A DNA stretch of 64,000 nucleotides from Candidatus Hydrothermales bacterium (GCA_039630575.1 JBCNUW010000001.1:120473-184472); one strand, 5' to 3'; shown: positions 16,140-52,066, numbered from the stretch's first letter. Numbers and translations: made by a program. Notes: generated from the letters alone by a model not told the origin.

Positions 16140-16150
16140 GGAATTGAACC
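16140..16150 (-). promoter_or_regulatory. T-loop-like leader motif GGTTCAATTCC upstream of ppdK
   Basis: One of four near-identical intergenic copies; ends 30 nt before the ATG, on the sense strand. Confidence 0.6.
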
Positions 16151-16202
16151 CTATTACTTAAACTTATTACTCAAAAATTAAAGTTAATTTTAAAATGATT
16201 TA

Positions 16203-17075
16203 TTAAATAAATTCAAATCTATTTTTCCCTTTTTTCTTAGCTTTTAAAAGTGCTTTGTCCGCTCTGTTTATAAAGTATTCAAAATTATCTATGTTATCAC
16301 AAAGTGTGATCCCAATTGACACAGTGATCTTTTTTCCTATTTCCTTTTCTGATTTGTTACTTATTCTAAAAAGCAGATCTTCTGCAATTTTTATAACTTC
16401 ATTTTTTGTAATATCAGGTAAAACTATAAGGAACTCCTCACCTCCCCACCTCACAACAAATCCCCTGTCCTCTAATTCTCTTAAAATTTTAGAAATAAAA
16501 ACTATTAACATATCACCTGTTTCGTGTCCGTAGACATCGTTAAACTTTTTAAAATTGTCAATATCCAAAAGGAAAATATAACTTTCCCTTGCCTTTTTAA
16601 GTAAATTTTTTATTACTTGGTAAAAGGCTCTTCTGTTGTGAAGTCCAGACAATTCATCCTTTAAAGCAATTTCTTCAAGTTTTAAAATTTTTTCTCTATC
16701 ATCCTTTGTTAAAAGGGAAAGTCTTTTAGCAATATTCAACAATTCTCTTGTACTTTCATCAACCCCAAAATCTTCAGTGGTCAATATAATATTATAAATT
16801 CCTACACTGATCTCATCACCTATATTTAACTTCTCTTTTTTTATTCTATGACCATTTAAAAAAGTACCGTTTTTACTTCCCATATCTTCTATGAAAAGAT
16901 CATCATCTTCAATAAAAATTTTAAAATGCCTCCTTGAAACAAGATTATCATCAAGGACTAAATCATTTTCAGGGCTTCTTCCTACTAAAATTTCAATCTT
17001 TTTTATAGTAAACACTCGTAGGATCTCATTTCCCTTTTTTACGACTAAATTTAAATTTTTTTTATCCTTTAACAA
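16203..17075 (-). CDS. FHA domain-containing diguanylate cyclase
   Basis: FHA motifs VGRS, VSRRH, GSKNGT; cyclase motifs DELSGLHNRR, DIDNFKKFNDVYGH, RWGGEEF. Confidence 0.9.
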   Translation of the reverse strand: MLKDKKNLNLVVKKGNEILRVFTIKKIEILVGRSPENDLVLDDNLVSRRHFKIFIEDDDLFIEDMGSKNGTFLNGHRIKKEKLNIGDEISVGIYNIILTTEDFGVDESTRELLNIAKRLSLLTKDDREKILKLEEIALKDELSGLHNRRAFYQVIKNLLKKARESYIFLLDIDNFKKFNDVYGHETGDMLIVFISKILRELEDRGFVVRWGGEEFLIVLPDITKNEVIKIAEDLLFRISNKSEKEIGKKITVSIGITLCDNIDNFEYFINRADKALLKAKKKGKNRFEFI

Positions 17076-18519
17076 CTCCTAAAGGTGTCAATTTTGCTAC
17101 TTTTTTCGATATCTGTGCTCTATGCACCACATCTACCACAAGATCAAGATTTTTATATGCATCTGGTATCTCTTCTTCCATAGTATCCCTTGAAGCAGCC
17201 CTTACTCTTACTCCAACTTTTAAAAGTTCACCTTGTATATCTCTGCCTTTGGCAGCTTTTATCGCAGCTGCTCTTGAGAGAACTCTTCCAGCACCATGAC
17301 AAGTAGAACCGAAAGACTTCTCCATAGCTTTTTGTGTACCAACAAGTATGTATGAACCTGTTCCCATACTTCCTGGGATCAAAACAGGTTGCCCAACATC
17401 TTTATAAACCCCTGGAATTTCTGGATGACCAGGAGGAAATGCTCTTGTAGCTCCCTTCCTATGTACCCAAACCCATCTCTCTTTTCCTTCAACTGTATGT
17501 TTTTCCCTTTTTGCAATATTATGGGCAACATCATATATCATATCTATACCAAGTTCAATAGAACTTTTTCCCAAAACTTTCTCAAAACTCTCCCTTACCC
17601 AATGAGTAATCATTTGTCTATTACACCATGCAAAATTTGCTGCTGCATTCATAGCTTTAATATAGTCTTGAGCCTCCCTGGAGGTAATCGGTGCACATGC
17701 AAGCTGATTATCAGGAAGTTCTATTCTATATTTTTTCATTGCACCCATCATGATTCTAATAAAATCGTCGGCAATTTGATGTCCGAATCCTCTTGAACCA
17801 CAATGTATCATGATGCAAATTTGACCTAAAAATAAATTCATCTTTTTTGCTGTCTCCTCATCAAAAATTTTATCAACTACCTGTAACTCAAGGAAATGAT
17901 TACCTGAACCAAGTGTACCCAATTGAGGCATCCCTCTTTCTCTTGCTTTATTAGATACAGGCTCTGTTCCTGCTCCATCTAAAGAACCATAAGACTCTGT
18001 TCTTTTCAGATCCTCTTCTGTTCCAAATCCTTTCTTAACAGCCCATTTTGCTCCCTGAATCATCACATCCTCTAAATCTCTTTCACTTATTCTTATTTTC
18101 CCTTTTGCTCCTACACCTGATGGAATATTGTAAAATAAAGCATCTAACAATTTGTCAATATACTTTATAACTTCCTCTTTTTTTAAGTTTGTCCTTAAAA
18201 CTCTTACACCACAGTTTATATCATAGCCTACACCACCTGGTGAGATTACCCCTTCTTTTTCATCCATTGCAGCAACACCACCAATAGGGAATCCGTACCC
18301 CCAGTGTATATCTGGCATAGCAAGAGAAGCTTTAATAATACCTGGTAAAAAAGCAACGTTTGCTACCTGTTCAGGTGCTTTATCTTGAATAATACTTTCC
18401 ATAAGCTCTTTTGTTGCAAAAATTATACCAGGAACCCTCATACCTTTTTTATAAGTTTTTGGTATTTCAAAAGTTACCTCATCAATTTGATTTAAAGGTC
18501 CATTCCATACTTCAGACAT
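17062..18519 (-). CDS. rtcB: RNA ligase RtcB (long, archaeal/thermophile-like form)
   Basis: MPDIHWGYGFPIGG, GYDINCG, GTLGSGNHFLE, HRKGATRAF, STCHGAGR; strong SD AGGAGGT. Confidence 0.96.
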   Translation of the reverse strand: MSEVWNGPLNQIDEVTFEIPKTYKKGMRVPGIIFATKELMESIIQDKAPEQVANVAFLPGIIKASLAMPDIHWGYGFPIGGVAAMDEKEGVISPGGVGYDINCGVRVLRTNLKKEEVIKYIDKLLDALFYNIPSGVGAKGKIRISERDLEDVMIQGAKWAVKKGFGTEEDLKRTESYGSLDGAGTEPVSNKARERGMPQLGTLGSGNHFLELQVVDKIFDEETAKKMNLFLGQICIMIHCGSRGFGHQIADDFIRIMMGAMKKYRIELPDNQLACAPITSREAQDYIKAMNAAANFAWCNRQMITHWVRESFEKVLGKSSIELGIDMIYDVAHNIAKREKHTVEGKERWVWVHRKGATRAFPPGHPEIPGVYKDVGQPVLIPGSMGTGSYILVGTQKAMEKSFGSTCHGAGRVLSRAAAIKAAKGRDIQGELLKVGVRVRAASRDTMEEEIPDAYKNLDLVVDVVHRAQISKKVAKLTPLGVVKG

Positions 18520-18552
18520 GTTTTACCTCCTTTGTTAAAAACTTATTATAAT

Positions 18553-19386
18553 CTATAATCTTGAAATTTTTAAAAGATAGTCAACAAATTCTTTTTCAAG
18601 TTCTTTATAATATGGAAAAACTTTAATACTAATTTTATTTATTGACTTTACAGGTTTAAGCTCAGTAGATGTACCAGTTAAAAAAACACCGTCTGCTTCA
18701 AATAAATCCCAGATCATAACCTTATTTTCAAAAACTAAGTATCCCTTATTTTTCAAAAACTCAATAAATCTTTTCCTTGTAACACCTGGTAAAATTCCAT
18801 TTAAAGAAGGTGTAAAAAAAACTTTGTCTTTGATATAAAAAATATTTGTAGAGGAACCCTCTTTTACAGATCCATCCTCATCAAAAAATAATGCCTCATC
18901 AAAGCCCTTTTGCTTAGCAAAGTATTTCACCATTACGTTTGGCAGTAAATTTGTAGTTTTCAAGTGAGCCCATTTCCATCTTATTTCAGGAAATAAAATT
19001 ATATTAAAATACTCAGGAATATGAGGAATATCTTGGCAAAAAACAACATAATTTGGTTTGGGTCTCTCTTTTACAAAATGTTCCCTTTCAACAGAACCTC
19101 CTGTAACCTGAATGTAAACAATACATTCCCTTTTTCCATATTGATTTGCAACATTCAAACAAATTTTTTTCCATTCATCCTTTTTTAAAGGATTCTCTAT
19201 TCTTAGTTCACTTAACCCTTTTTCCAATCTATCAATATGATCATCAAAACAGATAAGAATCCTGTCACAAAACCTTATCACTTCATAAACTGATTCACCA
19301 AAATTGAAACCCCTATCCTTTAGTAAATTATAGTAAACCTTAGATTTTACAAACCTACCGTTATAGAAAATTAACTTATTATCCAT
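18553..19386 (-). CDS. Class IV PLP-dependent aminotransferase (D-amino acid aminotransferase-like)
   Basis: DRGFNFGESVYEVIR, HLKTTNLL, EGSSTNIF, ILPGVTR. Confidence 0.85.
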   Translation of the reverse strand: MDNKLIFYNGRFVKSKVYYNLLKDRGFNFGESVYEVIRFCDRILICFDDHIDRLEKGLSELRIENPLKKDEWKKICLNVANQYGKRECIVYIQVTGGSVEREHFVKERPKPNYVVFCQDIPHIPEYFNIILFPEIRWKWAHLKTTNLLPNVMVKYFAKQKGFDEALFFDEDGSVKEGSSTNIFYIKDKVFFTPSLNGILPGVTRKRFIEFLKNKGYLVFENKVMIWDLFEADGVFLTGTSTELKPVKSINKISIKVFPYYKELEKEFVDYLLKISRL

Positions 19387-20165
19387 AAGGGATTTATCGG
19401 TATTGAGCCTTTACCTAACTCAACAGAGTTCTTTATTGCACCATAAATGAACTCTTTAGCTTTTTTTATTGAGTCTAAAACATCGTAACCTAAAGCAAGA
19501 TTTGCCGCAATACTTGCAGAAAAACTACAACCAGCTCCATGAAATTTTTTATTAACCATTACCTTTTCACTTTCCATAAGTACAAAGTCTTTACCATCAT
19601 ATACAACATCTATTGCCTTCTCTCCAAAATGTCCACCCTTTATTACAACGTATGATGGACCAAAATCTTTGATGATCTTAGCAGCTTTTTTTGCATCGTC
19701 GATACTTTCAACTTTAAAACCAGTAAAATTTTCTGCCTCATAACTGTTTGGAGTTACTACTAAAGCTAGTGGAAAAAGAGAATCAAGAAGTAGCTTTTTT
19801 GCTTCCTCTAAAAGCAATCTTTCACCTGAGCCTGCAAACACAACGGGATCTAAAACGTAATTTTTTAGTTTAAAAAAATTTATCCTATCAGCAACAACCT
19901 CTATTATTTCTTTTGAATAAAGCATACCAGTTTTAAAAGCACTTATCTTGAAATCTTCACAAACCATATCGATCTGATCCCTTACAACATTTGGGCTAAC
20001 CATCTGAATTGATTTTACTCCCTTTGTATTCTGGGAAGTAATTGCAGTAATAACTGAAAGACCAAAAGTTCTGTGAACAGCAAAAGTTTTAAGATCAACT
20101 TGAATGCCAGCACCACCTCCACTATCACTTCCAGCGATAGTTAGGACACAGGGAAACTTATTCAA
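19371..20165 (-). CDS. thiD: Hydroxymethylpyrimidine/phosphomethylpyrimidine kinase
   Basis: LTIAGSDSGGGAGIQ, KTGML, TPN, KGGH, HGAGC. Confidence 0.93.
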   Translation of the reverse strand: MNKFPCVLTIAGSDSGGGAGIQVDLKTFAVHRTFGLSVITAITSQNTKGVKSIQMVSPNVVRDQIDMVCEDFKISAFKTGMLYSKEIIEVVADRINFFKLKNYVLDPVVFAGSGERLLLEEAKKLLLDSLFPLALVVTPNSYEAENFTGFKVESIDDAKKAAKIIKDFGPSYVVIKGGHFGEKAIDVVYDGKDFVLMESEKVMVNKKFHGAGCSFSASIAANLALGYDVLDSIKKAKEFIYGAIKNSVELGKGSIPINPLWIIS

Positions 20166-20760
20166 AGTTTATTTCCCTTTCTTCAGTTATTATACCTTTA
20201 TATAGAAAGGAAATTTGTCTCAATAAAACATAATAGTCAAACTCATTTATTGCTGAAATTGCGTCCTTAGGAACAAAAATTTTATAGCCATGTAAAGCTG
20301 CTGACCCGGCTGTATGTAGTACACATATATTAGCCACAGTTCCTGTTATAACAAGATTTTTAATGTTATTTATTCTTAAAAGATGATCAAATGGTGTACC
20401 AAAAAAAGCATCGTATCTAAGTTTTCTTATTACATAATCACCCTTCTGTGGTTTTAATTCCTCAATTATATCGGATCCCCATGAATCCTTAACAGCGTGT
20501 TTTCCCCAAATTGGAAATTCAATATCTTCCTCTTCATGATAATCCTGTGTAAAAAAAATTTTAACATTACTTTTTCTTGCCTTACTTATTAAATTTTTAA
20601 TGATAGGAACAGTTTTTTTAGCATCTGGCACAAATAGTGCACCTTTTTCATTAACAAAATCATTTTGCATATCCACTATAACTAAGGCACTTTCTTTTGA
20701 ACTTAAAGTTACCTTTTTTTCGTAAAGGATCTCCGGTATTAAAACTTCTTTTTTATTCAT
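20158..20760 (-). CDS. Isochorismatase/nicotinamidase-family cysteine hydrolase
   Basis: IVDMQNDF, QDYH, W..HAV, KLRYDAFFGT, ANICV (Asp/Lys/Cys triad). Confidence 0.88.
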   Translation of the reverse strand: MNKKEVLIPEILYEKKVTLSSKESALVIVDMQNDFVNEKGALFVPDAKKTVPIIKNLISKARKSNVKIFFTQDYHEEEDIEFPIWGKHAVKDSWGSDIIEELKPQKGDYVIRKLRYDAFFGTPFDHLLRINNIKNLVITGTVANICVLHTAGSAALHGYKIFVPKDAISAINEFDYYVLLRQISFLYKGIITEEREINFE

Positions 20761-20778
20761 TTTAAAGATAAAATAAAA

Positions 20779-20789
20779 GGATTTGAACC
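20779..20789 (-). promoter_or_regulatory. T-loop-like leader motif GGTTCAAATCC
   Basis: Ends 18 nt before the ATG of the cysteine hydrolase, on the sense strand. Confidence 0.6.
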
Positions 20790-20833
20790 ACTAAAATTAT
20801 TCTCCCTATAAATATTTTCCTAAATTCTAAAAA

Positions 20834-21031
20834 CTATTTCTTCAATAAGCCTTCTATGGGCTTTAAAAATTGCTCAACTGTAATGTAGGGATTTACCCTA
20901 AGAGCTTTTTCTATAATTTTTTTTCTTTCTTCCTCACTTTCAGCTTTTAAATATTTTTCTCTTAATTTTTTAATTTTCCATTTACGATGCCTTTTTCGAT
21001 TAAGTTCGGTTTCTCTTAGTCTTCCTTTCAT
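20834..21031 (-). CDS. Small basic helical protein (resembles DUF6800-type proteins), likely leaderless
   Basis: 65 aa, RETELNRKRHRKWKIKKLR...; preceded by a near-consensus promoter. Confidence 0.65.
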   Translation of the reverse strand: MKGRLRETELNRKRHRKWKIKKLREKYLKAESEEERKKIIEKALRVNPYITVEQFLKPIEGLLKK

Positions 21032-21037
21032 AGTATA

Positions 21038-21066
21038 ATTATAAATAGAAAATTATAAAATTTCAA
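21038..21066 (-). promoter_or_regulatory. sigma70-type promoter of the small protein (leaderless)
   Basis: TTGAAA(21066-21061)-N17-TATAAT(21043-21038)-N6-ATG. Confidence 0.7.
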
Positions 21067-21074
21067 CTTTAAAA

Positions 21075-23114: not shown

Positions 23115-24357
23115 AATAGTATCTCCCCCTTTTTATTGTCCATTTTTTTTCTTTTTTTACAAATTCACAGAGCACCTTTTCTATTTCTTCTATACTTTTT
23201 ATTTCTACATCTTCAATTTTAACTATGAGGTCCCCTTCTTTTAGACCAATTTTGTCTGCATATTTACCCCTTTTTATATCGTTTATGAAAACACCGTTTT
23301 TCCCATTTTTTAAATTTATTCCCATTACACTCAAAAAACTCTCAATTTTTGAACCAAGTTTAATATTTGTAACGTTCTTTTTACCATTTCTCTCATAAAC
23401 AAGAAGAACATTTTCATCTTTTCGCAAAAGATCCACTTTTTTCCTAAAATCTGAGTAGTTTTTAACAAGGTCTTTACCTATTTTTAAAATGATGTCACCT
23501 GGCTCTAAACCAGCTCTGTCTGCAGGACCATCTTGAAGAACTGAAGTAATGACAATACCTTTATCTATGGGTTTCACTTCAAGTCCCAAAAAACCTCTTG
23601 GATAATAAGAATACAGCTTCAAGTAGTTTACAACAATTTTTAAAAGATTTGATGGAATTGCAAAACCTATTCCTTCAAAACCTCCTGATTTTGAAACAAT
23701 AAAGGTATTCATTCCGATAACTTCACCTCTTGCATTAAGGAGTGGGCCACCTGAATTACCAGGATTAATAGAAGCGTCTGTTTGAATCATACCTCTATAA
23801 ATCCTTTCACCTTCTCCCTTAAAAGTTCTGTTTAAAGCACTTATTACTCCAACAGTAACAGTTGGCTCTACATCTTCCCAGAGATACCCAAAAGGGTTTC
23901 CCATAGCTATTGCCCATTCTCCTCTTTCAAGTTTATCAGAATCAGCAAAATTAAGATAAGGTAAATTTTTGCCATTTATCTTTAAAAGAGCAATATCAAG
24001 GGAATAATCCTTACCTACAACCTTAGCTATAAAATTTCTTCCGTCTGGTAAGGAAACTACTATACTGTCAGAATTACTAATAACATGCTCGTTTGTTAAA
24101 ATGTAACCATCCTCTGAGATTATAAATCCTGAGCCTTGCGAGGATATTCGTTCTTTATATTCAGGAAACTCAAAAAATTCAAGGAAATCTCTGAAAAATG
24201 GATCATTAAAAATTGATGGTGCAAGAGAAACATACCTTGTAGTGAAACAGGTTATTGAAACAACAGCATTTTGACATTTTTTTACTGCATTTATTATTGC
24301 ATTTTCTCTATCTAAGGCTATTTCCTTTTGAAGAAGTAGTAAAATCGTAAAAATCAT
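23086..24357 (-). CDS. HtrA/DegP-family serine protease with two PDZ domains
   Basis: [34 protein letters not shown]. Start placed at the ATGA overlap with the upstream gene. Confidence 0.92.
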
Positions 24358-25049
24358 TTTCCTAGTAGGGACTCCCAATCTTCAAGAAATCTCTTTATAC
24401 CAATATCTGTTAAGGGATGTTTTAGCATTTTTTCTATAACATCTGGAGGTACTGTAACAATATCTGCACCAAGGGTAAAAGCCTCGATAACATGAATAGG
24501 ATGTCTCACACTAGCAACTAAAAGTTCTGAATCAAAATTATTAAAAGATAAAATTTGGGATAAAATTCTTACAATTTCCATACCCTCATTTGAAATATCA
24601 TCGAGTCTTCCAATAAATGGAGAAATGAATCTTGCTCCTGCTTTTAATGACAAAAGACCTTGTGATGGAGAAAATATTAAAGTCATATTTACATCTATAC
24701 CCTCTGATGTAAGTTTCTTTGTTGCTTTTAAACCCTCCTCTCCGAAGGGTATTTTTATCACTATATTTTTATTAATCTTTGCTAGTTCTATACCTTCCCT
24801 CACCATTCCCTCTTCATCTAAGGCTATAACCTCAGCAGATACAGGACCTTCGACAATTTCACAAATTTTCTCTAAAATTTCTTTACTTTTTTCAAAAATC
24901 TCTCTTTTATCTTTTGGTTTAAAATCAGGATAGAGCCTTTTAATTTCCTTTGATAAAAGAGTAGGATTAGTTGTAGCTCCTTCAATGATACCTAAAGATT
25001 TAAACCTTTTAAGTTCATCCAAGTTTGAGGTATCAGCAAAAATCTTCAT
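24354..25049 (-). CDS. Transaldolase / fructose-6-phosphate aldolase (short family)
   Basis: [48 protein letters not shown]. Confidence 0.92.
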
Positions 25050-26355
25050 CCTTAAGTCTCTCCTCTTTAAAAGGGATAGAACCTTTTAGTGAAAAAATTC
25101 TAATGAAAAAGACTGTAAAAATTAAAGCATTTATAAATGTGGCAAAGCTATTTAAGGAAAGTAAGAAAATTATTTTATTTTTAAAATCTATTATAAAAAA
25201 AGGTAGTGTTAATATTAAAAGCCAAAGGAGTAGATTCTTAAAAACTATTCCTTCCTTTTTTATTGCAAAAAATACTCTTGAGAAAAATCTTGAAAAAAGA
25301 TAAAAAAGAAGAGATAAAGAAAGAAGCAAAAATTCATCAGTATAAAATTTAAACTTATTCTTTGGAAAAAAAAGATGAAGAAAGGACTTACCGATTGATA
25401 CTATGAAGATTGTAAAAAATACTAAAGAGATAAAAATAAGAATTGAAGAAAGAACGATTGTTCTAAAAAATTTTTTTCTTTTTCCCTCATAATAGGAACT
25501 GGAAATGTGGGGATAAACTGGCACAAAATAGGAATTAAATAGAAGTTTAACAGCCTGAAAGATTGAAATTTCGGCTGTAAAATTACCGATTAAATCATCA
25601 GCAACATTTTTTAATTTTAAAAGCAAAATAGGGTAACTAAAGTAACTTTGAATGAGTGTATTTGAAAAACCCATTGAGAAAATTCCCCCTTTTAAAAAAT
25701 TTAAATTTATCTTAAAGAGAAAACTCCTTTTAAGATAAATTAAATAAAAAAGGAAAAATAAAAAATTAGAAAGTTCAGATAAAATGTAAACTACTATAAA
25801 TAAATTAATCCTATCTATCCCCTTAATAAAGTAAAAAAAACCAAAAAGTAAGAAAAATAATCCTTTTAAAATGTTAACTAAACTAAAGGCATAAAAAAGC
25901 CTTTTTCCTATAAGGAAGCCAATCCCTATTGAGGAAAAAATTGAAAAAAAATGAACTAAGAAAGCACCAAATAAGATGAAAAAATCATTGTTAAAAAATT
26001 TCTTTAATAATAAATCTTTTAGAATTAAGAAAAATAAAATAGAGAGAAGAAATACAAGAGATATATACGTAAAAGATTCATCAACTAAATCCTTGATTTT
26101 TTCACTTTCACCCTTAGCCTTCAATTCGACAATTTTTCTTGAAAGATAGTCTCTAAATCCAGATCCAAGTAAAAAAGAGGTAAAATTATAAAAGGAATAG
26201 AAAACTCCAAGAATCCCAACACCCTCTGAACCAATTACTTTTCCTGAAAATGACAAAAATAGAAAATAAAAGAAGGATTGTGAAAAGTGGCCAAAGGTAG
26301 TCCAAATTGTTCCACCTATTAAACCCTTTGTAAATAATAATTTTTTTAAAATAAT
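25033..26355 (-). CDS. Oligosaccharide flippase (Wzx/MOP superfamily)-like membrane protein
   Basis: Multi-TM protein. The frame stays open upstream of the track's TTG (26256) to 26370; an ATT at 26355 with SD GGAGGA (26367-26362) restores an N-terminal ..[20 protein letters not shown] helix. Confidence 0.7.
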
Positions 26356-35478: not shown

Positions 35479-36111
35479 TTACTTTATATGACAATCAAGG
35501 CAAATTTGACTGTTTGTGGTGTCACCCCTTAAGAAACTATAGGGGGGTTGAGCAACATCTACATTATGGGGATCATGGCAAGTAGAGCAAGTCATCACTG
35601 AATCAGCACCAGGTTGTATACCTGAAAAATTATAGAGTGGATAACCCCATGTTGAAGGAGGGTTAAATTTAGTAGGCGGCAATCTTCCCGGTGCCACATC
35701 CATATCGACTGGATGAGAGTAAATAAGAGTATCATTTGTTCCACTTGTAACATCAGGAGGATCTTGAACAGCTGCACCAACATTCCTTGGACCAAATGAG
35801 TAAAGTGTCCCAAGATCAGCTCTTGTTTGAGTTCCATCATGACAGGAAAGACAAGCATAACTTATCCAAGAGGCTCTTGTCATTGGGTCTGTATAGGTTC
35901 CGTTATATAGAGCTGAAATAGTGGGTACATAAACCCTATTCCAAAGATAATAAAAATTTTGACTGGGATTAGCATTGTGCGGTGTATGGCAGTATATGCA
36001 AACTTGTCCTGCATTGGGTCTGTTAAAATCATGCCTACTTCCTACAATTGTTGCATGAAGCCAAATATAAAAGGTTGAAAGAACTAGAACTACTATAATC
36101 ATTTTCTTCAT
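35479..36111 (-). CDS. Secreted tetraheme cytochrome c, OmcE (nanowire)-like
   Basis: Sec signal; motif order GSRHD, QVCIYCHTPHNA, LWNR, SYACLSCHDG, HPV, PLY, CSTCHDPH, FLR, SQICLDCHIK; eight His in the mature chain; SD AGGAGGT. Confidence 0.85.
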   Translation of the reverse strand: MKKMIIVVLVLSTFYIWLHATIVGSRHDFNRPNAGQVCIYCHTPHNANPSQNFYYLWNRVYVPTISALYNGTYTDPMTRASWISYACLSCHDGTQTRADLGTLYSFGPRNVGAAVQDPPDVTSGTNDTLIYSHPVDMDVAPGRLPPTKFNPPSTWGYPLYNFSGIQPGADSVMTCSTCHDPHNVDVAQPPYSFLRGDTTNSQICLDCHIK

Positions 36112-36135: not shown

Positions 36136-36148
36136 GGGACTTGAACCC
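36136..36148 (-). promoter_or_regulatory. T-loop-like leader motif GGGTTCAAGTCCC upstream of the cytochrome operon
   Basis: 3-bp GC stem plus 7-nt TTCAAGT loop, 10 nt upstream of the SD. Confidence 0.6.
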
Positions 36149-42234: not shown

Positions 42235-42821
42235 ACGAAAGAGTTTATAAATTTCTACTAAAACTTAGGGAAAAATCGATAGATATAGGTATAATGGCAT
42301 TACCTGAGGATTCTGCAAAGTTTTTATATTTTGTTACGAAAATCTACAATAAAGAAAATATAAAAATTGTTGAATTAGGTTCAGGTATTTTATATTCAGC
42401 ATTATGGATGCTCTGTGGAATTCTAAATTCAGGTAAAAATGGAAAAATTTACGCTGTAGAAAGAGAGGAAAAATATTCTAAAATGGGCTTTAACATAATT
42501 AACGAACTTTCTAAAATTTTAAATTTAAATGTTTTTGATATGTTAGAAATAGTTAATGAAGATGTGGTTAACTTAAGGGGTGACGAATTTGGTAACGATA
42601 TCGATATAATTTTCTTTGACATAGACAAAAAACTATATCTTAGAGCTCTAAAAAAATTTGAACCCTTTATAAAAAAGGGAGGATTAATAATAGCCCATAA
42701 TATACTTTCTCACAAAGAAGAGCTCTTAGATTTTATTGAGGAAATAAAAAATGAGGCAAAATATTTTACCTTAATACTTCAAACAGATCCTCAAGGTTTA
42801 TCAATATCGATTAAATTTTAA
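42231..42821 (+). CDS. SAM-dependent O-methyltransferase
   Basis: IVELGSGILYSALW, DIIFFDIDK, GGLIIAHN. Confidence 0.85.
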   Translation: MNERVYKFLLKLREKSIDIGIMALPEDSAKFLYFVTKIYNKENIKIVELGSGILYSALWMLCGILNSGKNGKIYAVEREEKYSKMGFNIINELSKILNLNVFDMLEIVNEDVVNLRGDEFGNDIDIIFFDIDKKLYLRALKKFEPFIKKGGLIIAHNILSHKEELLDFIEEIKNEAKYFTLILQTDPQGLSISIKF

Positions 42822-43822: not shown

Positions 43823-43828
43823 TAAAAA

Positions 43829-45109: not shown

Positions 45110-45731
45110 AAACTTCCTTAAATTTATTTATGAATAAAGGGATTATATCCTCTAAATTAATTTCTCTATTGAGTTCTTTAGATAAATCAGTCATCTCTAC
45201 ATCAAGTCCACAAGGTCTTATTAGCTTGAAGAACGAAAGATCCATGTTAATATTAAAGGCTAGACCATGAAAGGTAACACCTTTCTTTACAGCAACTCCA
45301 ATTGAAGCAATTTTCTTTCCTCTAACAAAAACACCAATGTTTTTATTTAATCGTACTGCTTCAATTCCATACTCTTTTAAAACATTTTTAACAACCTCCT
45401 CCAAATTATGGACAAATTTTTTTATACTTTTAAACACTTCGTTAAGCTTTATAATTGGATAAGCTACAAGTTGACCAGGACCGTGAAAGGTTATATCACC
45501 CCCTCTTTCTATATGGTAAAGCATAATTCCCTTCATCTTAAGGAAATTTTCATCAACAAGAAGATTTTTCCTACTTCCTCTTGCTCCAATAGTATAAACA
45601 GGGAAGTGTTCACAAATTAAAAGTGTATCTCCAACAATGTCTTTGCTTCTTTTATCAACTAACTCTTTTTGAAAATCCCAAATCTCCTTGTAGTTCTTTA
45701 TTCCTAAGTTAAAAATTTCAATTTTTTTCAT
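45096..45731 (-). CDS. lipB: Lipoyl(octanoyl) transferase
   Basis: EHFPVYTIG, RGGDITFHGPGQLVAYPI, KIASIG, HGLAFN, IRPCG. Confidence 0.95.
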   Translation of the reverse strand: MKKIEIFNLGIKNYKEIWDFQKELVDKRSKDIVGDTLLICEHFPVYTIGARGSRKNLLVDENFLKMKGIMLYHIERGGDITFHGPGQLVAYPIIKLNEVFKSIKKFVHNLEEVVKNVLKEYGIEAVRLNKNIGVFVRGKKIASIGVAVKKGVTFHGLAFNINMDLSFFKLIRPCGLDVEMTDLSKELNREINLEDIIPLFINKFKEVFEYN

Positions 45732-45740
45732 AAAAAAGAT

Positions 45741-45803
45741 ATTTTAATTGAAATTTACTTTCCCTTCAAAATTAAATTATAATATTATTTGAGGTTGAAA
45801 TCC
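45741..45803. promoter_or_regulatory. Divergent promoter region with a T-loop-like variant motif
   Basis: Minus strand: TTGAAG(45769-45764)-N17-TAAAAT(45746-45741) for lipB. Plus strand: TATAAT(45778-45783), then GGTTGAAATCC(45793-45803). Confidence 0.5.
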
Positions 45804-45823
45804 CAATTTAAAATACTAAAATA

Positions 45824-48088
45824 ATGATCAACTTTTTTTTATCTTTATTTATTTTTACAGAAAATCTATCCATTTTACAGATATTTGTTACTTCAGAAAA
45901 TATAATACCAAACCTTTATAGGGAGGGACTTCAGGAAATAAAAAGGTATGACAGGAAAAAGGGAATTTTAGAGGGTGTTTGCGAGAAGAAAATTTTTGAA
46001 TATCTTGAAAAAAATAAAATTTATTACATCACAAAGATTCCTGATCTTGAAGATGATTTTAAAAATAAGATGCAGAATAAGATAAATTTTGGCCCCTATT
46101 ATACCTTTCAAGAGGCTGTTAATGAATTAAACAAAATACACAGTAACTTTCCCAACCTCACATCACCACCAATCAGTTACGGTGTCTCATGGGAGGGAAG
46201 AAATATTTATGCAATGAAAATTTCAGACAATCCCAACGAGAATGAAAATGAACCTGCAATTTTACTGACTGGTGTTCATCATGCAAGGGAACCTATAAGT
46301 TGTTCTATAGTGCTTGAATTCGCAAAATATTTACTTACCAAGTATGGAACTGATCCAGATGTTACATGGCTTGTGAATAACAGAGAGATATGGATTGTTC
46401 CTGTTATCAATCCAGACGGATATGTCTATAATGAAACCTATCCATCAGGGATGTGGAGGAAAAATAGAAGAAATAATGGAGGTTCCTTTGGCGTTGATTT
46501 AAACAGAAATTATGGATACATGTGGGGTTACGATGACGTTGGTTCATCTCCTGATCCATCTTCGGAGATCTATAGAGGCCCTTCTCCCTTTTCAGAGCCA
46601 GAGATAGGAGCAATTAGAACATTGTCCAATCAAGTTAAACCTGTAATTACTTTAAATTACCATTCCTATTCAAATCTTTTAATTTATCCGTGGGGATATG
46701 ACGACCTATATACACCTGATAACAATCTTTTCAAAGCTATGTGTGTTGAAATGACTTCAAAAAGTGGCTATGCTTACGGAACAGCTTGGGAACTTTTGTA
46801 TAACGCAAACGGAACCTCAGATGATTGGATGTATGGTGAACAAAACGAAAAACCAAAAATTTTAGCTTTTACTCCTGAGGTTGGAGAAAACTTTTGGCAG
46901 CCTGATACGAACATAATAATGGAACAAATAGGTGAAAATCTTCCCATGAACATGTTTGTTCTTAAAGCAGCAGGTCATTATGTGATAATTGATTCTCTAC
47001 ATTTTGTAGATCAGAATGGATCAGCTCATATTGATCCAGGAGATACTTTAAATCTTACTATATGGTTAAAAAATTTAGGAGTTAATGGAAATTTAACAAA
47101 TGTCAAGTTAATTTTAAAATCGACAGGTTCATGTGCTTACGTTATAGATACTCTTCTGAATTTTCCGGATATTCCTGCTTTTCCTGGTAATTCTGTTCAA
47201 AATCTTTCACCTTTTAAAATTGTTACTTACAATTCTTTCCCAGACAGTTCAGCAATTCCTTTTCTCCTTAAAATTCAGGGTAATCCTCTTTTTTTAAAAA
47301 CCGAAAGTTTTTATATAGAAAACGAGCGACCCCCTTATGTACTCTTTGAAGATGGTTTTGAAACAGGACTTTCAAATTGGGTTCAAGGAGGAACAAGCAC
47401 ACCTTGGCAAAGAACAACCTCTACCCGCTACTCTGGTATCTTCTCGCTCACCGATAGCCCCTCATCAAATTATTCTAATAACCAAAATACCTGGATAAGA
47501 ACTTTGAATCCTATTAATCTCAATTTAAATTTAGATACATTCAAACTATTATTTTGGGTTAAATATGAGATCGAATCTGGTTGGGATTTTGTACATGTTG
47601 AGATTTCTAATGACGGATCAACCTGGCATAAACTAATTTCATTCACAGGTTTGCAGACAAACTGGAAAAGGATAGAACTTGATCTAACTCCTTACAAGGG
47701 TAATCAGGTTTACATAAGATTTAGACTGGAAACAGATGTATACTTAACGGAGGATGGAATATATATTGATGATGTGAAAGTTATTGCTTATAGGAAACCA
47801 TATTTTGCAGTGTGTGAAGCCACCAAAATCGTTGAAAAAGGAAGTGATGTTTTAAGGGAAAGTGTATATCCTGAAATAAAGAACCTAAACAGTTTTCTCC
47901 TCAAGTCAAAGATTGACGAAGAGTACGAGATAGAGTTTTATGATGCTTCAGGAAAGAAACTTAGAAAAGAGAGAGTTTTCTTGAGGGAAGGAGAAAAATT
48001 TTATTTTAAACCAAAATTAAAAGGTCTTTACTTTTATATTATTGAAACAAAACATTTTCGAAAAACTGGTAAATTTGTGGTTAATTAG
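45824..48088 (+). CDS. Secreted M14 zinc carboxypeptidase (carboxypeptidase T-like) with accessory domains and a T9SS/FlgD-like CTD
   Basis: HHARE, WRKNRR, GVDLNRNY, HSYS, TPEVG; jelly-roll-like FEDGFE...YIDDV domain; CTD FYDASGKKL...GLYFY. Confidence 0.92.
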   Translation: MINFFLSLFIFTENLSILQIFVTSENIIPNLYREGLQEIKRYDRKKGILEGVCEKKIFEYLEKNKIYYITKIPDLEDDFKNKMQNKINFGPYYTFQEAVNELNKIHSNFPNLTSPPISYGVSWEGRNIYAMKISDNPNENENEPAILLTGVHHAREPISCSIVLEFAKYLLTKYGTDPDVTWLVNNREIWIVPVINPDGYVYNETYPSGMWRKNRRNNGGSFGVDLNRNYGYMWGYDDVGSSPDPSSEIYRGPSPFSEPEIGAIRTLSNQVKPVITLNYHSYSNLLIYPWGYDDLYTPDNNLFKAMCVEMTSKSGYAYGTAWELLYNANGTSDDWMYGEQNEKPKILAFTPEVGENFWQPDTNIIMEQIGENLPMNMFVLKAAGHYVIIDSLHFVDQNGSAHIDPGDTLNLTIWLKNLGVNGNLTNVKLILKSTGSCAYVIDTLLNFPDIPAFPGNSVQNLSPFKIVTYNSFPDSSAIPFLLKIQGNPLFLKTESFYIENERPPYVLFEDGFETGLSNWVQGGTSTPWQRTTSTRYSGIFSLTDSPSSNYSNNQNTWIRTLNPINLNLNLDTFKLLFWVKYEIESGWDFVHVEISNDGSTWHKLISFTGLQTNWKRIELDLTPYKGNQVYIRFRLETDVYLTEDGIYIDDVKVIAYRKPYFAVCEATKIVEKGSDVLRESVYPEIKNLNSFLLKSKIDEEYEIEFYDASGKKLRKERVFLREGEKFYFKPKLKGLYFYIIETKHFRKTGKFVVN

Positions 48089-48471
48089 TCATATGGAATT
48101 TTTATGTAATAGATAATTTCCTCAAATTTTTTAATTTCTAAATTGTATAGGAATTCAACTTTTATACCTCTGAATTTTAAATCTTTTAAATCGATAAAAT
48201 AAACAATTATAACTTTTTTATTATCTTCTGTAAGAAAGGAAGAATGATAACTTACCTTTATGTCCTTTTTATCTATTGATAGCAATTTGAGAATTTTAAT
48301 AAAAATATAGGAATTTTTTTCAATTTTTTTAGTTAAATCTTCTATCACTACTGGATTTTCATACTTAACAAGGTTTGTTCTTATATATCCTTCCTTTAAA
48401 ATGAACTTATCAAAATCGTAATGTTTAAGAAAAGAAAGTAAAAGTATTAAAAACTTAGAGAATTTTTTCAT
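48085..48471 (-). CDS. Hypothetical protein
   Basis: 128-aa ORF filling the gap; hydrophobic N-terminus; TATAAT 7 nt upstream. Confidence 0.55.
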   Translation of the reverse strand: MKKFSKFLILLLSFLKHYDFDKFILKEGYIRTNLVKYENPVVIEDLTKKIEKNSYIFIKILKLLSIDKKDIKVSYHSSFLTEDNKKVIIVYFIDLKDLKFRGIKVEFLYNLEIKKFEEIIYYIKIPYD

Positions 48472-48492
48472 TAGATAAATTATAATAGAAAG

Positions 48493-49641
48493 ATGAAAAT
48501 AAACAGAATTTATGATGTAATAGTAGTGGGAGCAGGACCAGCTGGAGGTTTTTCTTCTTTTAAACTTGCAGAAAAAGGGCTAAAAATACTTTTAATTGAG
48601 AAAAAGAAAATAATAGGTGAACCAGTTCAGTGTGGTGAGGGATTGTCAGAATATGCTTTAGAGGAAAACAAAATAAAAAAAGAAGAAATATACATAAACA
48701 GAAAAATAAAAGGATCTAAAACTTTTACTCCATCAGGATTTTATTTTATATTTCCAATTGAGGGCTATCTTATTAAAAGAAACAAATTTGACCAGTACCT
48801 TGCTGAAATCTCAAGTGAAAAAGGTACAGAAATAAAAAAAGATGAAATTGTTTTGTGTATCAATAAAATAAATAATTATTTTAAGGTAATTTCTAATAAG
48901 GACGAATATTATAGTAGATACGTTATTCTTGCAACTGGAACTCATAAGAAAATTCAGGGAATTAATTATCCTAAATTTAAGGAAATTACTGCTATTGAAT
49001 TTAGATTCAAAAAAAACAAAATAGATGATGAATACTTTCATTTTCATTTTGGTAATGACTTTAAACCTTTTTATGGATGGGTATTTTTTCATAATGAAGA
49101 GACAGGAATTGGATCAGGCTTTTATGGAAGAAAAAATACTATAAAAGCTATAGAAAAACTAACAAGATGCTATGAATTTAAAAAATTAGAAAAGATAAAA
49201 GTGGTAGCCGGAAGAATTCCTTTTTCAAAACCAGTTTTCCCAGATGATCCTGAGGGACTTTTAAGGGTTGGGGATTCAATCGGTGCAGTCCATCCTTTTA
49301 CAGCTGGGGGAATACATGGGGCTCTTACAACAGGCAGAATTGCTGCTGAAACTATTATCAAATTCTTTGAATCAAGAAATTTAAATAACATCTATTATAA
49401 AAAGTTAAAAAAAATCCCAATTTTTAAAAATTCTCTTTGGAATAAGCAGAGTAGGCTTTTTTCAAAAAATTCAAAAGAATGGGATGAGATAGGAAGACTG
49501 ATGAATAAAAGAATTTATAAAGAAATACCCTGGATAAGAGCATTTTTTTATTTGTTTTTTAATCCATTTTCTACATTTAATATTTTATTTTTTTTAAATT
49601 TGCAAAAAGCGTTTAAATTTTCAGAAAATTATTCTTATTAA
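48493..49641 (+). CDS. Geranylgeranyl reductase-family FAD-dependent oxidoreductase
   Basis: DVIVVGAGPAG, PVQCGEG, YGWVF, VGDSIG.VHPFTAGGI. Confidence 0.85.
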   Translation: MKINRIYDVIVVGAGPAGGFSSFKLAEKGLKILLIEKKKIIGEPVQCGEGLSEYALEENKIKKEEIYINRKIKGSKTFTPSGFYFIFPIEGYLIKRNKFDQYLAEISSEKGTEIKKDEIVLCINKINNYFKVISNKDEYYSRYVILATGTHKKIQGINYPKFKEITAIEFRFKKNKIDDEYFHFHFGNDFKPFYGWVFFHNEETGIGSGFYGRKNTIKAIEKLTRCYEFKKLEKIKVVAGRIPFSKPVFPDDPEGLLRVGDSIGAVHPFTAGGIHGALTTGRIAAETIIKFFESRNLNNIYYKKLKKIPIFKNSLWNKQSRLFSKNSKEWDEIGRLMNKRIYKEIPWIRAFFYLFFNPFSTFNILFFLNLQKAFKFSENYSY

Positions 49642-49655
49642 AAAGGAGATCTATT

Positions 49656-50732
49656 ATGATTTTTTATTTTTTAATTTTCTATATTTATAAAATTCCAGCT
49701 TTTCCCGACTCTTTATTTGAGTTTGGGAAGAAAACAATTTTAGAGTTTATTGAAAAGGATTACATAAGGGAATACAAAGACAGTATCGAAATTTTTTTTG
49801 AGAATTTTGTTATTGACGATGAAAATTTTTGGGTTGAGGGAACTGTTTATATAAAAAAAGATAAAATTAAAAATCTCAAAACATTAACAGGTTTCTCAAA
49901 AAAAGATATAAATGAGGCAATAATAAAATTCAGCGAAAATGCAATAACCTATTTGAAATCAATATTTTTTGAGTCACCTGAGGTAATTGAAATAAAAAAT
50001 AACATAGTTAAGATAAAAAATGGTTTTCTAAAGGGGATAAGAGAAACTGAAACTTTTATGTACGGTGACCTAACAAATCCATCTGGATTTCTGAAGATTA
50101 AGGAAGTTTATGAAAATGAGGCAATCTGTAAACTTTTGATTAAAGATAGAAAACCGGAAAAAGGTGAAAAATTAATAAGAATAAGAGGTATACCATACAT
50201 ATACACTCTTTATCTTTCTTCTGGATTTTCTTTAATTGAAACTAAAAAGGGTCTTTATGGAGCAGAGAAAAATATAAAGGATGGATCAATTTTACTTTAT
50301 GGTCTTGGATTTAGGTTAAAAATTCAAGAACCCTTTTCTGTTTTTTATTTTAATCCAGGGATATTTTTCTACACCTCAAATTATTTAGAATCGCAAAAAC
50401 TATCTATTACAGGAAATTATATTCTAAACAATCTTTTTAAACTTGGTTTTTCATTTGATTTTCTTTTAATTTGGCAGACAGAGAGAAACGGCAAAGAAGT
50501 TAGAGCTTTAGATTACCTTATATCACCCTCCTTAACATATGAAAAAGAATATAAGAATATTAATATATCATTCAAAACTGGATATTCTCTTGGAAGGGTG
50601 TTAAGAAATTTCTCATATGAAGTAAAAGGCGGGGATACTTTAGTCTCTGATGTGGATCTTACTTATAAGGAAATTAATCCAAAAGGTATAAACCTTGAAT
50701 TTTTGATAGGTTTTAACTTAAAGAGACCTTAA
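49656..50732 (+). CDS. Hypothetical protein, possibly with a C-terminal outer-membrane beta-barrel
   Basis: SD AGGAG; C-terminal alternating strands ending GINLEFLIGFNL. Confidence 0.5.
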   Translation: MIFYFLIFYIYKIPAFPDSLFEFGKKTILEFIEKDYIREYKDSIEIFFENFVIDDENFWVEGTVYIKKDKIKNLKTLTGFSKKDINEAIIKFSENAITYLKSIFFESPEVIEIKNNIVKIKNGFLKGIRETETFMYGDLTNPSGFLKIKEVYENEAICKLLIKDRKPEKGEKLIRIRGIPYIYTLYLSSGFSLIETKKGLYGAEKNIKDGSILLYGLGFRLKIQEPFSVFYFNPGIFFYTSNYLESQKLSITGNYILNNLFKLGFSFDFLLIWQTERNGKEVRALDYLISPSLTYEKEYKNINISFKTGYSLGRVLRNFSYEVKGGDTLVSDVDLTYKEINPKGINLEFLIGFNLKRP

Positions 50733-50750
50733 ACAATTAAGGAGGATAAA

Positions 50751-51980
50751 ATGTTAAAGGAAGGGTTAAATAAAATATATTGGGCAGAGAGAAATATGCC
50801 AGTTTTACTCAACATCAGAGAAAGGTTTAAAAAAGAAAAACTTTTAAATGGATTAAAAATTTCAGCTTGTCTCCATGTTACACCTGAAACTGCTTCTTTA
50901 GTTATTACATTAAAAGAAGGAGGAGCAACTGTTTTTCTCTGTGCCTCAAATCCTCTATCTACAAAAGATGATGTAGCTTTAGCCTTAAGGGAAGAATACG
51001 GAATTCAGGTTTTTGCAAAATATGGGGCTACTACGGAAGAATATTACGAACATATTGAAAAAGCATTAACTGTTATCCCTGACATAACCTTAGATGATGG
51101 GGCAGATTTAACTTCCTATCTTCATCAAAACTTTGATAAGTTTGGCAAAAACATTAAAGGTGGAACAGAAGAAACAACAACTGGTGTAGTCAGATTAAAG
51201 AGCATGGAGAAAAATAATATTCTAAGATATCCTATAATTGCTGTAAACGATTCTAAAACAAAATATCTTTTTGACAATAGATACGGAACAGGTCAAAGTA
51301 CATTAGATGGTATATTAAGAGCAACAAATATTTTAATTGCAGGAAAGAATTTTGTAGTATGTGGTTACGGATGGTGTGGTAAAGGTGTAGCAACAAAAGC
51401 AAAAGGTTTGGGAGCAAAAGTTATTGTTACGGAAGTTGATCCTATCAAAGCACTTGAGGCAAAAATGGATGGTTTCGATGTTATGAAAATAGAAGAAGCT
51501 GCACTAATTGGAGACGTTTTTGTGACAGTGACAGGTAATAAAAATGTAATTGACATAAATCATATTAAAAAAATGAAAAACGGAGCAATTTTAGCAAATT
51601 CTGGTCATTTTAATGTTGAAATAAACATCTCAGAATTGAGAAAAATTTCAAAAAAAATTGAAAAGGTAAGAGAAAATGTTGAAAGATTTATCCTTGATGA
51701 TGGTAAAGAAATATTTCTGATTGCAGAGGGTCGTCTTGCAAACCTTGTTGCAGCTGAAGGTCATCCGCCTGATGTTATGGATATGAGTTTCTCAAATCAA
51801 GCTCTTGCGTGTGAATTTATAATTAAAAATTTTCGGAAATTGGAAAAAAGAATTTATACACTGCCAGAAGAGATAGATAGAGAAATCGCAAGAATAAAGC
51901 TTAAAACAATGGGAGTTGAAATTGATGAATTAACAGAAGAACAAAAGAAATACCTTGAATCCTGGGAAGAGGGAACTTAA
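50751..51980 (+). CDS. ahcY: Adenosylhomocysteinase
   Basis: ACLHVT, ASNPLST, DDGADL, EETTTGV, KYLFDNRYGTGQS, GYGWCGKG, GHPPDVMDMSF. Confidence 0.96.
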   Translation: MLKEGLNKIYWAERNMPVLLNIRERFKKEKLLNGLKISACLHVTPETASLVITLKEGGATVFLCASNPLSTKDDVALALREEYGIQVFAKYGATTEEYYEHIEKALTVIPDITLDDGADLTSYLHQNFDKFGKNIKGGTEETTTGVVRLKSMEKNNILRYPIIAVNDSKTKYLFDNRYGTGQSTLDGILRATNILIAGKNFVVCGYGWCGKGVATKAKGLGAKVIVTEVDPIKALEAKMDGFDVMKIEEAALIGDVFVTVTGNKNVIDINHIKKMKNGAILANSGHFNVEINISELRKISKKIEKVRENVERFILDDGKEIFLIAEGRLANLVAAEGHPPDVMDMSFSNQALACEFIIKNFRKLEKRIYTLPEEIDREIARIKLKTMGVEIDELTEEQKKYLESWEEGT

Positions 51981-52053
51981 ATAAAAAAAGATAGGAAAAA
52001 AATTAGGGGGTAAAAGATAAGAACTAAAAGTTTAAAATTAAGAGAACTATAAA

Positions 52054-52066
52054 GGGTTCAAATCCC
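52054..52066 (+). promoter_or_regulatory. T-loop-like leader motif GGGTTCAAATCCC upstream of nrdJ
   Basis: AGGG/CCCT stem around a TTCAAAT loop, about 20 nt before the ATG. Confidence 0.6.

Follow-up and report, generated by a model that had tools for sequence, protein, structure and literature searches.

Short copies of the T-arm of transfer RNA (tRNA), hereafter called T-loop mimics, have been found in front of the start codons of several genes within a 64-kb stretch of DNA from Candidatus Hydrothermales bacterium (GCA_039630575.1 JBCNUW010000001.1:120473-184472), which in its entirety is referred to as the window and is numbered from its first letter. A preliminary description of the window had listed five of these sites, and all five are indeed present at the coordinates and on the strands claimed; the list has turned out to be incomplete, with a sixth leader site at 25073-25083 (minus strand) and an exact match at 53448-53458 passed over. 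The genes had been named broadly correctly as PpdK, NrdJ, an isochorismatase-ThiD-class IV aminotransferase group, a multihaem cytochrome, an M14 peptidase and a QRPTase/PncB-like protein. Distances of 18-30 nucleotides (nt) to the start had been proposed, and 30 (ppdK), 18, 25, 20 and 20 nt have been obtained, close to that range; likewise, four of the five leaders do lack a Shine-Dalgarno sequence (SD), the exception being the cytochrome leader. The sites and the genes behind them are as follows, each site being given with its flanking bases N0 and N12 and with the 11-base core in brackets:

16139..16151, minus strand (core 16140-16150): T-loop mimic GGTTCAATTCC in the ppdK leader; N0:N12 is G.U; 30 nt to the start; without SD
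13455..16109, minus strand: ppdK (pyruvate, phosphate dikinase; TIGR01828, E = 0), led by the element
20778..20790, minus strand (core 20779-20789): T-loop mimic GGTTCAAATCC in the isochorismatase-family leader; N0:N12 is U.U, unpaired; 18 nt to the start; without SD
18553..20760, minus strand: genes for an isochorismatase-family hydrolase, ThiD and a class IV aminotransferase, behind the 20779-20789 site
25072..25084, minus strand (core 25073-25083): T-loop mimic GGTTCTATCCC in the transaldolase/FSA leader; N0:N12 is A-U; 23 nt to the start; SD GAGGAG present
24354-25049, minus strand: transaldolase/FSA gene, behind the 25073-25083 site
36136..36148, minus strand (core 36137-36147): T-loop mimic GGTTCAAGTCC in the cytochrome leader; N0:N12 is G-C; 25 nt to the start
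35479-36111, minus strand: multihaem cytochrome gene, with AGGAGG between motif and ATG
45778..45783, plus strand: exact TATAAT box, a candidate promoter by consensus match only, ending 9 nt before the motif at 45793
45792..45804, plus strand (core 45793-45803): variant T-loop mimic GGTTGAAATCC in the M14 leader; position 5 is G; N0:N12 is A.C, unpaired; 20 nt to the start; without SD
45824-48088, plus strand: M14 carboxypeptidase gene, behind the 45793-45803 variant site
52054..52066, plus strand (core 52055-52065): T-loop mimic GGTTCAAATCC in the nrdJ leader; N0:N12 is G-C; 20 nt to the start at 52086; without SD in this genome
52086..55602, plus strand: nrdJ (B12-dependent ribonucleotide reductase) and an overlapping QRPTase/PncB-like gene

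The motif GGTTCRANTCC is matched five times in the window against 0.09 matches expected, and a count of five has been reached in none of 100 shuffles. The fifth exact match, at 53448-53458 (minus strand), lies antisense inside the nrdJ open reading frame (ORF) and is probably due to chance. With a relaxed motif, GGTTNNANNCC, nine matches have been obtained, six of them before starts and three (21391, 35612 and 53448) in coding sequence. As the preliminary description had held, no remainder of a tRNA accompanies the sites: ARAGORN has predicted no tRNA gene in the window, and a search of the whole window against Rfam has returned no match at the gathering threshold.

The genome from which the window is taken (G000; a 1.886-Mb assembly in 95 contigs with 30.3% G+C) contains 136 copies of GGTTCRANTCC, 43 within the 47 predicted tRNA and tmRNA genes and 93 outside, and for 78 of these 93 an ORF start (at least 50 aa) follows 13-35 nt downstream on the same strand. 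Genes have been called by a crude ORF heuristic, which has yielded 1548 ORFs (100 aa or longer) that have sufficient sequence upstream. Among these, GGTTNNANNCC occurs outside tRNAs, in sense orientation and 13-35 nt before the start, in 103, compared with eight antisense copies in the same bin, and each of the other upstream bins holds one to four sense copies; a genome-wide scan, which had been put forward together with the preliminary description, has thus shown a strong enrichment before starts. In the 76 leaders without SD the spacer between motif and start has a median of 20 nt (interquartile range, IQR, 19-23), with 66 of the 76 at 17-25 nt, and in the 27 leaders with SD a median of 25 nt (IQR 23-30.5); its composition is 49% A, 37% U, 8% G and 6% C. 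In 20 cases, fewer than 20 nt separate the end of the upstream same-strand ORF from the start, and the motif thus falls within the last codons of that ORF (e.g., before dnaK, G000 C13:17827-19771), and accordingly the motif has been kept even while it constrains the C-terminus of another protein.

These counts bear on the idea of a selfish or neutral repeat, in which the copies would be tRNA-derived debris, a miniature mobile element or an artefact of composition. That the motif matches part of the tRNA genes of the same genome would agree with such an origin. Set against it are the 295 non-tRNA copies of GGTTNNANNCC in the whole genome, where 84 are expected from base composition, the strand bias of 103:8 before starts, and the restriction of what is common to 11-13 nt with uninformative flanks, and it is already contradicted by the conservation of orthologous sites across two genera described below; we give it next to no weight. 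Nor does the element belong to the class of repetitive extragenic palindromic (REP) and miniature inverted-repeat transposable element (MITE) repeats, which have a longer palindromic unit, usually lie after genes and are spread by transposases, whereas the element is 11-13 nt long, points in sense direction, precedes starts and is kept at orthologous sites.

The tolerance of the motif has been determined from one-mismatch variants, with position 8 left free, by asking which copies precede starts. Only one of the 132 variant copies at positions 1-4, 7, 10 and 11 does so (1/36 at position 10), whereas many variants at positions 5, 6 and 9 do, and these tolerated positions, together with the free position 8, define the working motif GGTTNNANNCC and a leader consensus of GGUUcNANNCC. 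Positions 2, 3, 7 and 10 are invariant among the leader copies, variants before a start amounting to 1/103 (position 10). Of the 103 sites, 92 have C at position 5; position 6 holds A in 74, T in 17, G in seven and C in five, and position 9 holds T in 76, C in 19, G in seven and A in one. In tRNA numbering the motif reads G52 G53 U54 U55 C56 N57 A58 N59 Y60 C61 C62. It comprises what defines a T-loop, namely a seven-base loop, the closing pair G53-C61 and invariant U54 and A58; none of nine variants of the U55 equivalent precedes a start, C56 is found in 92 of the 103 sites, and at position 57 purines (81 sites) outnumber pyrimidines (22 sites). The motif also fits the code of the TruB family, GUUCNANNC, G standing at -3 and, in 95 of the 103 sites, a pyrimidine at +5, and so has, at the sequence level, what marks a substrate of TruB, Pus4 or TRUB1: this code within a hairpin whose loop measures 7 nt and whose stem has 2 or more base pairs (bp).

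Five further genomes of the same family (G001-G005) have been compared, the six belonging to two genera with G005 in the second, together with G006 from the sister family and G012 from another family; all of these are kin and not independent. Within G000, the bases flanking the core, N0 and N12, form a Watson-Crick pair at 67 of the 103 sites compared with 36.9 +/- 4.5 after shuffling, the maximum of 5000 shuffles being 55. A family-wide set of 55 sites has been assembled from the window, from G005 and from the orthologous leaders of G001-G005, out of which three tRNA T-loops and one GC-rich structured site have been removed and in which three doubtful matches have been kept. In this set, N0:N12 is formed in 43 of 52 distinct rows (GC 19, AU 16, GU 6, CG 1, UA 1), its covariation score has been reached by none of 500 shuffles, and between orthologues the pair switches among A-U, G-C, U-A and C-G through double changes. 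The short stems noted in the preliminary description are thereby confirmed and consist of G1-C11, G2-C10 and the covarying N0:N12. Pairs beyond N0:N12 are at chance level in G000; in the family-wide set a fourth pair is present in 34 of 52 rows and outer pairs less often, so that the five base pairs of a genuine T-stem are not attained. A position-weight analysis of 77 sites has revealed neither positional information in the flanks nor a box at fixed distance, and the flanks of the 93 exact copies outside predicted tRNA and tmRNA genes are likewise uninformative as to any full tRNA or tRNA-like fold.

In a phylum-wide sample of 201 genomes, 195 of which lie outside the family and represent 39 further families, GGTTCAAWTCC has been counted 67-149 times in the six family genomes, 20-29 times in five order-mates and at most 31 times in all 195 others; the excess of the motif is confined to one family (6/201 genomes sampled). 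Accordingly, 25 sites of the same architecture have been found in 281 kb of G005, compared with only three weak sites in 400 kb of G006. In 11 of 12 orthologue pairs between G000 and G005 the motif has been kept while the flanks have diverged, and four of these pairs show double compensatory changes at N0:N12. For the genes of the window, the motif is retained in all six family genomes in the leaders of the isochorismatase-family, TAL/FSA and nrdJ genes, and in all five genomes in which the ppdK leader was found (G000, G001, G002, G004 and G005; not found in G003), again with diverged flanks; indeed, the flanks of the six leaders cannot be aligned across the family. Among relatives of ppdK outside the family, the three closest of the leaders compared (L001-L003; 80 loci kept) are without the motif. 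The cytochrome leader carries it in three of the four genomes with the gene, and in G001 (L236) has GGTGCGAATCC, in which an invariant T is changed. The M14 peptidase leader carries it in three of five, as GGTTAGAGTCC in G002 and GGTTCAATTCC in G003, and in G001 and G004 (L241 and L242) a GGGTCCGAACCCC hairpin replaces the T-loop. As judged from their sequences, the cytochrome leader of G001 and the peptidase leaders of G001 and G004 are natural 'mutants' of the element.

A few observations have been made alongside. At G006:C1 ~271243 (minus strand; L117), a gene with SD has in front of it GGTTCGAATCC at the tip of a far longer hairpin (ccggagggtaaaa...tttacctccgg), which looks like an acceptor/T-arm minihelix in a genome whose family is without the T-loop leader class. 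The NrdJ frame of G005 (L248, G005:C72:34253-38062) spans 1127 aa compared with ~770 aa elsewhere, and its match to window residues 15-284 and 281-300 is split by ~1.09 kb; some 360 aa, possibly an intein, thus seem to have been inserted in frame. The gene that precedes nrdJ has a conserved end in G001, G003, G004 and G005 (window 51950-52054 against L245-L248), and G000 and G002 have ~60 extra bases between this end and the nrdJ T-loop. Finally, a single ORF of 2708 aa occupies 55723-63849 of the window on the minus strand.

The relation of the element to transcription has been approached through promoter calls, which are consensus matches in DNA of 80% A+T. An exact TATAAT is present within 60 nt upstream at 33 of 108 sites compared with 13.3 expected, and TTGAAA upstream at 25 of the 108 compared with 13.5; the copies of TATAAT are concentrated 9-16 nt upstream of the motif, those of TTGAAA beyond a further spacer of 17-18 nt. 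A -10-like hexamer ending 7-16 nt before the motif occurs at 43 of 103 sites, compared with 10-20 in four control windows. With a sigma70-type -10 box tending to occur just upstream, the probable place of the motif is the 5' end of a leader of 30-45 nt. In the window, the box at 45778..45783 would place the 45793 element at about +3 of its candidate transcript, and a -10-like TAGAAT ends 13 nt upstream of the motif in the transaldolase/FSA leader. The nrdJ leaders of G001, G003, G004 and G005 have a promoter-like pair, TTGAAT-N17-TAATAT, that shares sequence with the end of the preceding gene and is separated from the motif by 9 nt.

The remaining genes of G000 present a different picture. A -10-like hexamer in the position expected of leaderless transcripts, ending 4-9 nt before the ATG, has been found in 164 of 457 other genes with free upstream space (27-39 in control windows) and in only nine of the 103 T-loop genes, whose ATG-anchored alignment shows no -10 pattern. 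The genes of leaderless type have a TTG box at a spacer of 17-18 nt and almost no SD, and their fractions in G005 and G006 are similar to that in G000. From these hexamers near the ATG and the scarcity of SD, leaderless mRNAs seem to be the default in G000, beside which the T-loop genes would constitute a separate, leadered class with a leader of ~30-45 nt and the T-loop as its first structured element. The motif has also been considered as a -35-like box of a leaderless promoter and rejected, as no -10 box lies between motif and ATG and leaders bearing SD exist; as a sigma70-type promoter box it fails for want of a fixed partner spacing, the -10-like boxes upstream lying at variable distances of 7-16 nt.

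One of two readings in the preliminary description, a DNA site with strand orientation that would belong to an energy or redox regulon, has found no support. In its general form it would have the motif recognised in DNA, whether double-stranded or in the open complex, by a transcription factor or alternative sigma factor; the strict orientation, the fixed place near gene starts and the excess in a single family, as a lineage-specific regulator would give, are in keeping with this. The motif is not palindromic, however, and no second box stands at a fixed distance on either side; the compensatory covariation of N0:N12 would be needless for a reader of DNA, and the variable and fixed positions obey the rules of the tRNA T-loop. 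Besides the missing -10 box between motif and ATG, the SD begins as little as 9-13 nt after the motif in leaders that bear one, which places the transcription start at or before the motif. We therefore consider a DNA element very unlikely. The other reading, an undescribed cis-element in which an mRNA leader mimics a T-loop, has instead been supported by strand and position, by variation that follows the T-loop and TruB rules, by the covariation of the closing pair and by the sigma70-type promoters just upstream.

Processing of longer transcripts has been weighed as well. In this case an RNase would recognise the mimic and cut nearby, freeing monocistronic or leaderless mRNAs. Signals for processing that resemble tRNA are known elsewhere, leaderless mRNAs seem to be widely used in G000, and the element is commonest where the upstream neighbour on the same strand ends 20-59 nt (33 of 128 genes) or 60-149 nt (19 of 76) away and rarer where that neighbour is divergent or absent (23 of 347). 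Yet about 40% of the sites have a promoter-like box of their own upstream, which would make cleavage pointless there; no acceptor-like helix is available to RNase P or RNase Z, and the spread of 17-25 nt to the ATG is too wide for a ruler that creates a 5'-AUG, so that we give this explanation little credence.

A possible link of the element to translation has been examined in the orthologues of the sister family. For the genes of G000, the best match by tblastn has been taken from 1.54 Mb of G006, which has given 439 pairs; six have been dropped, as their 'T-loop' belonged to an upstream tRNA. Among 45 orthologues of T-loop genes in G006, 37 carry an SD and none a T-loop, compared with an SD in 57 of 150 other G006 genes with upstream room (odds ratio 7.5, p = 1.5e-7); the G000 members of the same 45 pairs have an SD in nine. 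In 400 kb of G012, which has provided seven orthologue pairs, six of the seven have an SD. Considering the SD in the sister orthologues together with the phyletic pattern, the SD leader is ancestral and the T-loop leader derived, and on this comparison of sequences the element has taken over leaders that were formerly led by SD. Within G000 itself, the T-loop as a substitute for the SD has been rejected, since the frequency of SD does not differ between the two groups of genes. The element is also distinct from the SD in its place and in its pairing: both are short sense-strand signals at a preferred distance before starts, but the element lies at -20 to -31 and the SD at -7 to -13, and pairing with the anti-SD would require the variable positions 8 and 9 of the element. 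Indeed, only its GG and the variable A/U-U/C-CC part could pair with the anti-SD, whereas the invariant UUC-A core cannot.

The genes led by the element have been characterised in a family scan of 92 of the 108 genes that have an exact or one-mismatch copy, with 81 results listed. Among the matches listed (NCBIfam), translation is represented by EF-Tu, S1, S12, S15, S20, L31, IF-3 and RRF, transcription and replication by RpoD, Rho and DnaN, chaperones and proteases by DnaK and HtrA, central metabolism by GAPDH, malate and isocitrate dehydrogenases, SucC, PorC, PpdK and fumarase, and other enzymes and carriers by NrdJ, MetK, SufS, PstS and ferritins. Envelope and secretion functions in the same list comprise pilus proteins, a pyrophosphatase, NuoM, LpxD and several S8 peptidases with type IX secretion system (T9SS) tails, and about 17 proteins are without a family match. 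The led set is broad and largely housekeeping, not an energy or redox regulon, and because the roughly 100 genes span translation, transcription, chaperones, central metabolism and secretion, the link between a nicotinamidase-like gene and pncB that had been pointed out for the window is coincidental.

A set rich in translation, transcription and growth functions, and a mimicry that is exact at the residues used by T-arm readers, might be taken to indicate a titratable site, at which a T-arm-binding protein or the elbow sites of the ribosome are shared with tRNAs and expression is coupled to the pool of free or immature tRNA. This idea is purely inferential, no evidence of a switch or of an alternative fold having been found, and the set also includes many secreted peptidases and proteins without a family match; we think it quite improbable.

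Taken together, we hold with moderate confidence that these mRNAs carry, at the 5' end of their short leaders, a transcribed copy of the T-arm that promotes their expression, most likely at initiation. The motif, its strand and spacing, the covariation, the restriction to one family, the conservation among orthologues and the exchange with SD are established by the sequences; we infer that the motif is transcribed, that it meets a binding partner and that it has an effect on expression. The RNA element would be a minimal copy of the T-arm in which N0:N12, G1-C11 and G2-C10 close the seven-base loop UUCNANN; it would fall within about the first 10 nt of a short leader, followed by an A/U-rich spacer of 17-25 nt, usually without SD, and by the start codon. 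The T-loop leader would thereby mark ~100 leadered genes, many of them housekeeping and normally highly expressed, beside operon-leading genes that mostly look leaderless. The hairpin may be read as a tRNA elbow or T-arm, either by the initiating ribosome, as has been proposed for cis-tRNA leaders, or by TruB, TrmFO or TrmI, which would fold and modify it, or by both, and the outcome would be SD-independent initiation of translation and expression of the led mRNAs.

Several points weigh against this proposal. The transcription start is placed by consensus boxes only, with a box at ~40% of the sites. The hairpin is weak, with a mean nearest-neighbour free energy of -1.3 kcal/mol at 37 C and of +1.6 at 65 C; no D-loop partner is present among the leaders, and position 6, a purine in tRNA, is a pyrimidine in 22 of the 103 sites. 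The exchange with SD leaders has been computed from crude ORF-based gene calls and from kin genomes, the frequency of SD within G000 is the same for T-loop and other genes (~24-26%), and many T-loop leaders of G005 carry an SD as well. The 16S rRNA, which has not been found in the assembly of G000, ends in ...GGATCACCTCCTTT in G001, G004 and G005, so that the anti-SD is intact; compared with G006, the same three have the same anti-SD and no family-specific insertion. No reader special to the family has been found among TruB, TrmI, bS21, L1 and 16S, a comparison of whole proteomes not having been made: all 41 genomes examined have one copy of TruB (TruB_N) and 38 of the 41 have TrmI, and bS21 and L1 have each been found in 20 of 21 with similar frame lengths. 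In addition, TruB of E. coli binds short stem-loops poorly, with a Kd above 1 uM (PMC13492117).

The equal frequency of SD in G000 and the occurrence of both signals in G005 imply that the element is not a strict either/or alternative to the SD; in G000, 27 of 103 leaders have element and SD. Since the hairpin is weak, it should need tertiary contacts of the T-loop, modification or a partner in order to fold, above all in a thermophile; the 16S G+C of 62-64%, compared with a genomic G+C of 30-33%, fits such a lifestyle. With no candidate reader special to the family, the reader may be a universal one, such as the tRNA-elbow sites of the ribosome or the enzymes acting on the T-arm. As a separate observation, the 16S rRNA of G001, G004, G005 and G006 contains GGTTCAATTCG at alignment columns ~984-994, one base off the motif; being shared by family and sister, it does not explain the family-specific excess.

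As to the reader, one may tentatively postulate a ribosome-recruitment signal that has replaced the SD in one family, whereby a tethered look-alike of the tRNA elbow ~20 nt upstream docks on the ribosome and places the start codon in the P site. One conceivable docking site is the L1 stalk/E-site region of the 70S ribosome, already in use for leaderless mRNAs, and modification by TruB, TrmFO or TrmI may precede docking. The alternative in which the element serves only as a stabiliser of the 5' end, its TruB-, TrmFO- or TrmI-bound or modified form guarding leadered mRNAs from 5'-end-dependent RNases while the A/U-rich spacer initiates translation, draws on the predicted position ~2-9 nt from the 5' end of the transcript, on sequence rules that equal the TruB/TRUB1 code, on the encoded enzymes (G000 has genes for TruB, TrmFO, TrmI and an m5U methyltransferase) and on the SD that co-occurs in 27 of 103 leaders at variable distance. 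A pure cap-like element at the 5' end would have no need of the tight spacing in the leaders without SD, though, and would hardly be expected inside the 3' end of an upstream same-strand gene, as at 20 sites; the hairpin alone is, moreover, unstable. We judge a stabiliser of this kind unlikely.

The element can be set beside known systems. Compared with the tRNA T-arm (positions 52-62), the element has the same 11 bases as the tRNAs of G000, the pairs G53-C61 and G52-C62, the 7-nt loop, invariant U54, U55 and A58, C56 in 92 of 103 sites, no fixed base at position 59 and, in 95 of 103, a pyrimidine at position 60. It differs in having a stem of 3 bp instead of 5, in lacking D-loop, acceptor and anticodon arm, in the pyrimidine at position 57 of 22 of 103 sites, and in its location, which is in mRNA leaders and a fixed distance ahead of the start codon. 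The mRNA sites of TRUB1 have been described as GUUCNANNC in a stem-loop with G at -3 and a pyrimidine at +5 (PMC5340967), for which a stem of at least 2 bp suffices (PMC5340967; PMC13492117). The sequence code of the eukaryotic TRUB1/Pus4 hairpins is thus identical, but they are scattered over mRNAs, whereas the element is present in ~100 copies at one leader position in one bacterial family. Closer in setting are leaders in which cis tRNAs or the tRNA-like yjdF aptamer upstream of an SD have raised translation 2- to 6.3-fold in a purified in vitro system; the authors suggest that the ribosome is contacted directly, possibly at the E site, and the elbow formed by D-loop and T-loop has been required for activation (PMC9142559). 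Both cases put a tRNA look-alike into a bacterial mRNA leader upstream of the ribosome-binding region. Theirs is a whole L-shaped fold with an elbow, linked to an SD, found at single genes and responsive to a ligand, whereas the element is a bare T-arm hairpin without an elbow, mostly without SD and genome-wide; by analogy, the two may be alike in function despite the missing elbow. For repeated motifs at starts in general, Cluster K mycobacteriophages reportedly have start-associated sequences, in which a conserved motif that includes the SD region recurs just upstream of many starts and is phage-specific; the element, by contrast, copies a tRNA T-loop and belongs to a bacterial chromosome. 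By the features that define each of them, the element is neither a tRNA nor a tRNA-like structure, an Rfam family, an SD or a promoter box, and in the literature searched, with supplementary files outside its scope, no description of a start-associated T-loop in bacteria has been met.

The family represents a natural experiment on how start codons are chosen without SD pairing, as ~7% of the genes, among them tuf, rpsA, rpoD, dnaK and several for ribosomal proteins, carry an 11-base copy of the T-loop at one distance, in the place taken by an SD in sister lineages. If it is true that the element recruits ribosomes, it would constitute a new class of initiation signal and a third route of start selection beside SD pairing and leaderless 5'-AUG binding, and the laboratory finding that tRNA-like leaders raise translation would extend to nature. 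Should it be a substrate of TruB, TrmFO or TrmI, the leaders would provide the first programmed, position-specific sites of mRNA modification on a genomic scale in a bacterium. Either way, the element offers a compact and testable module of 13 nt, and it calls for caution with gene callers based on an SD model in such lineages.

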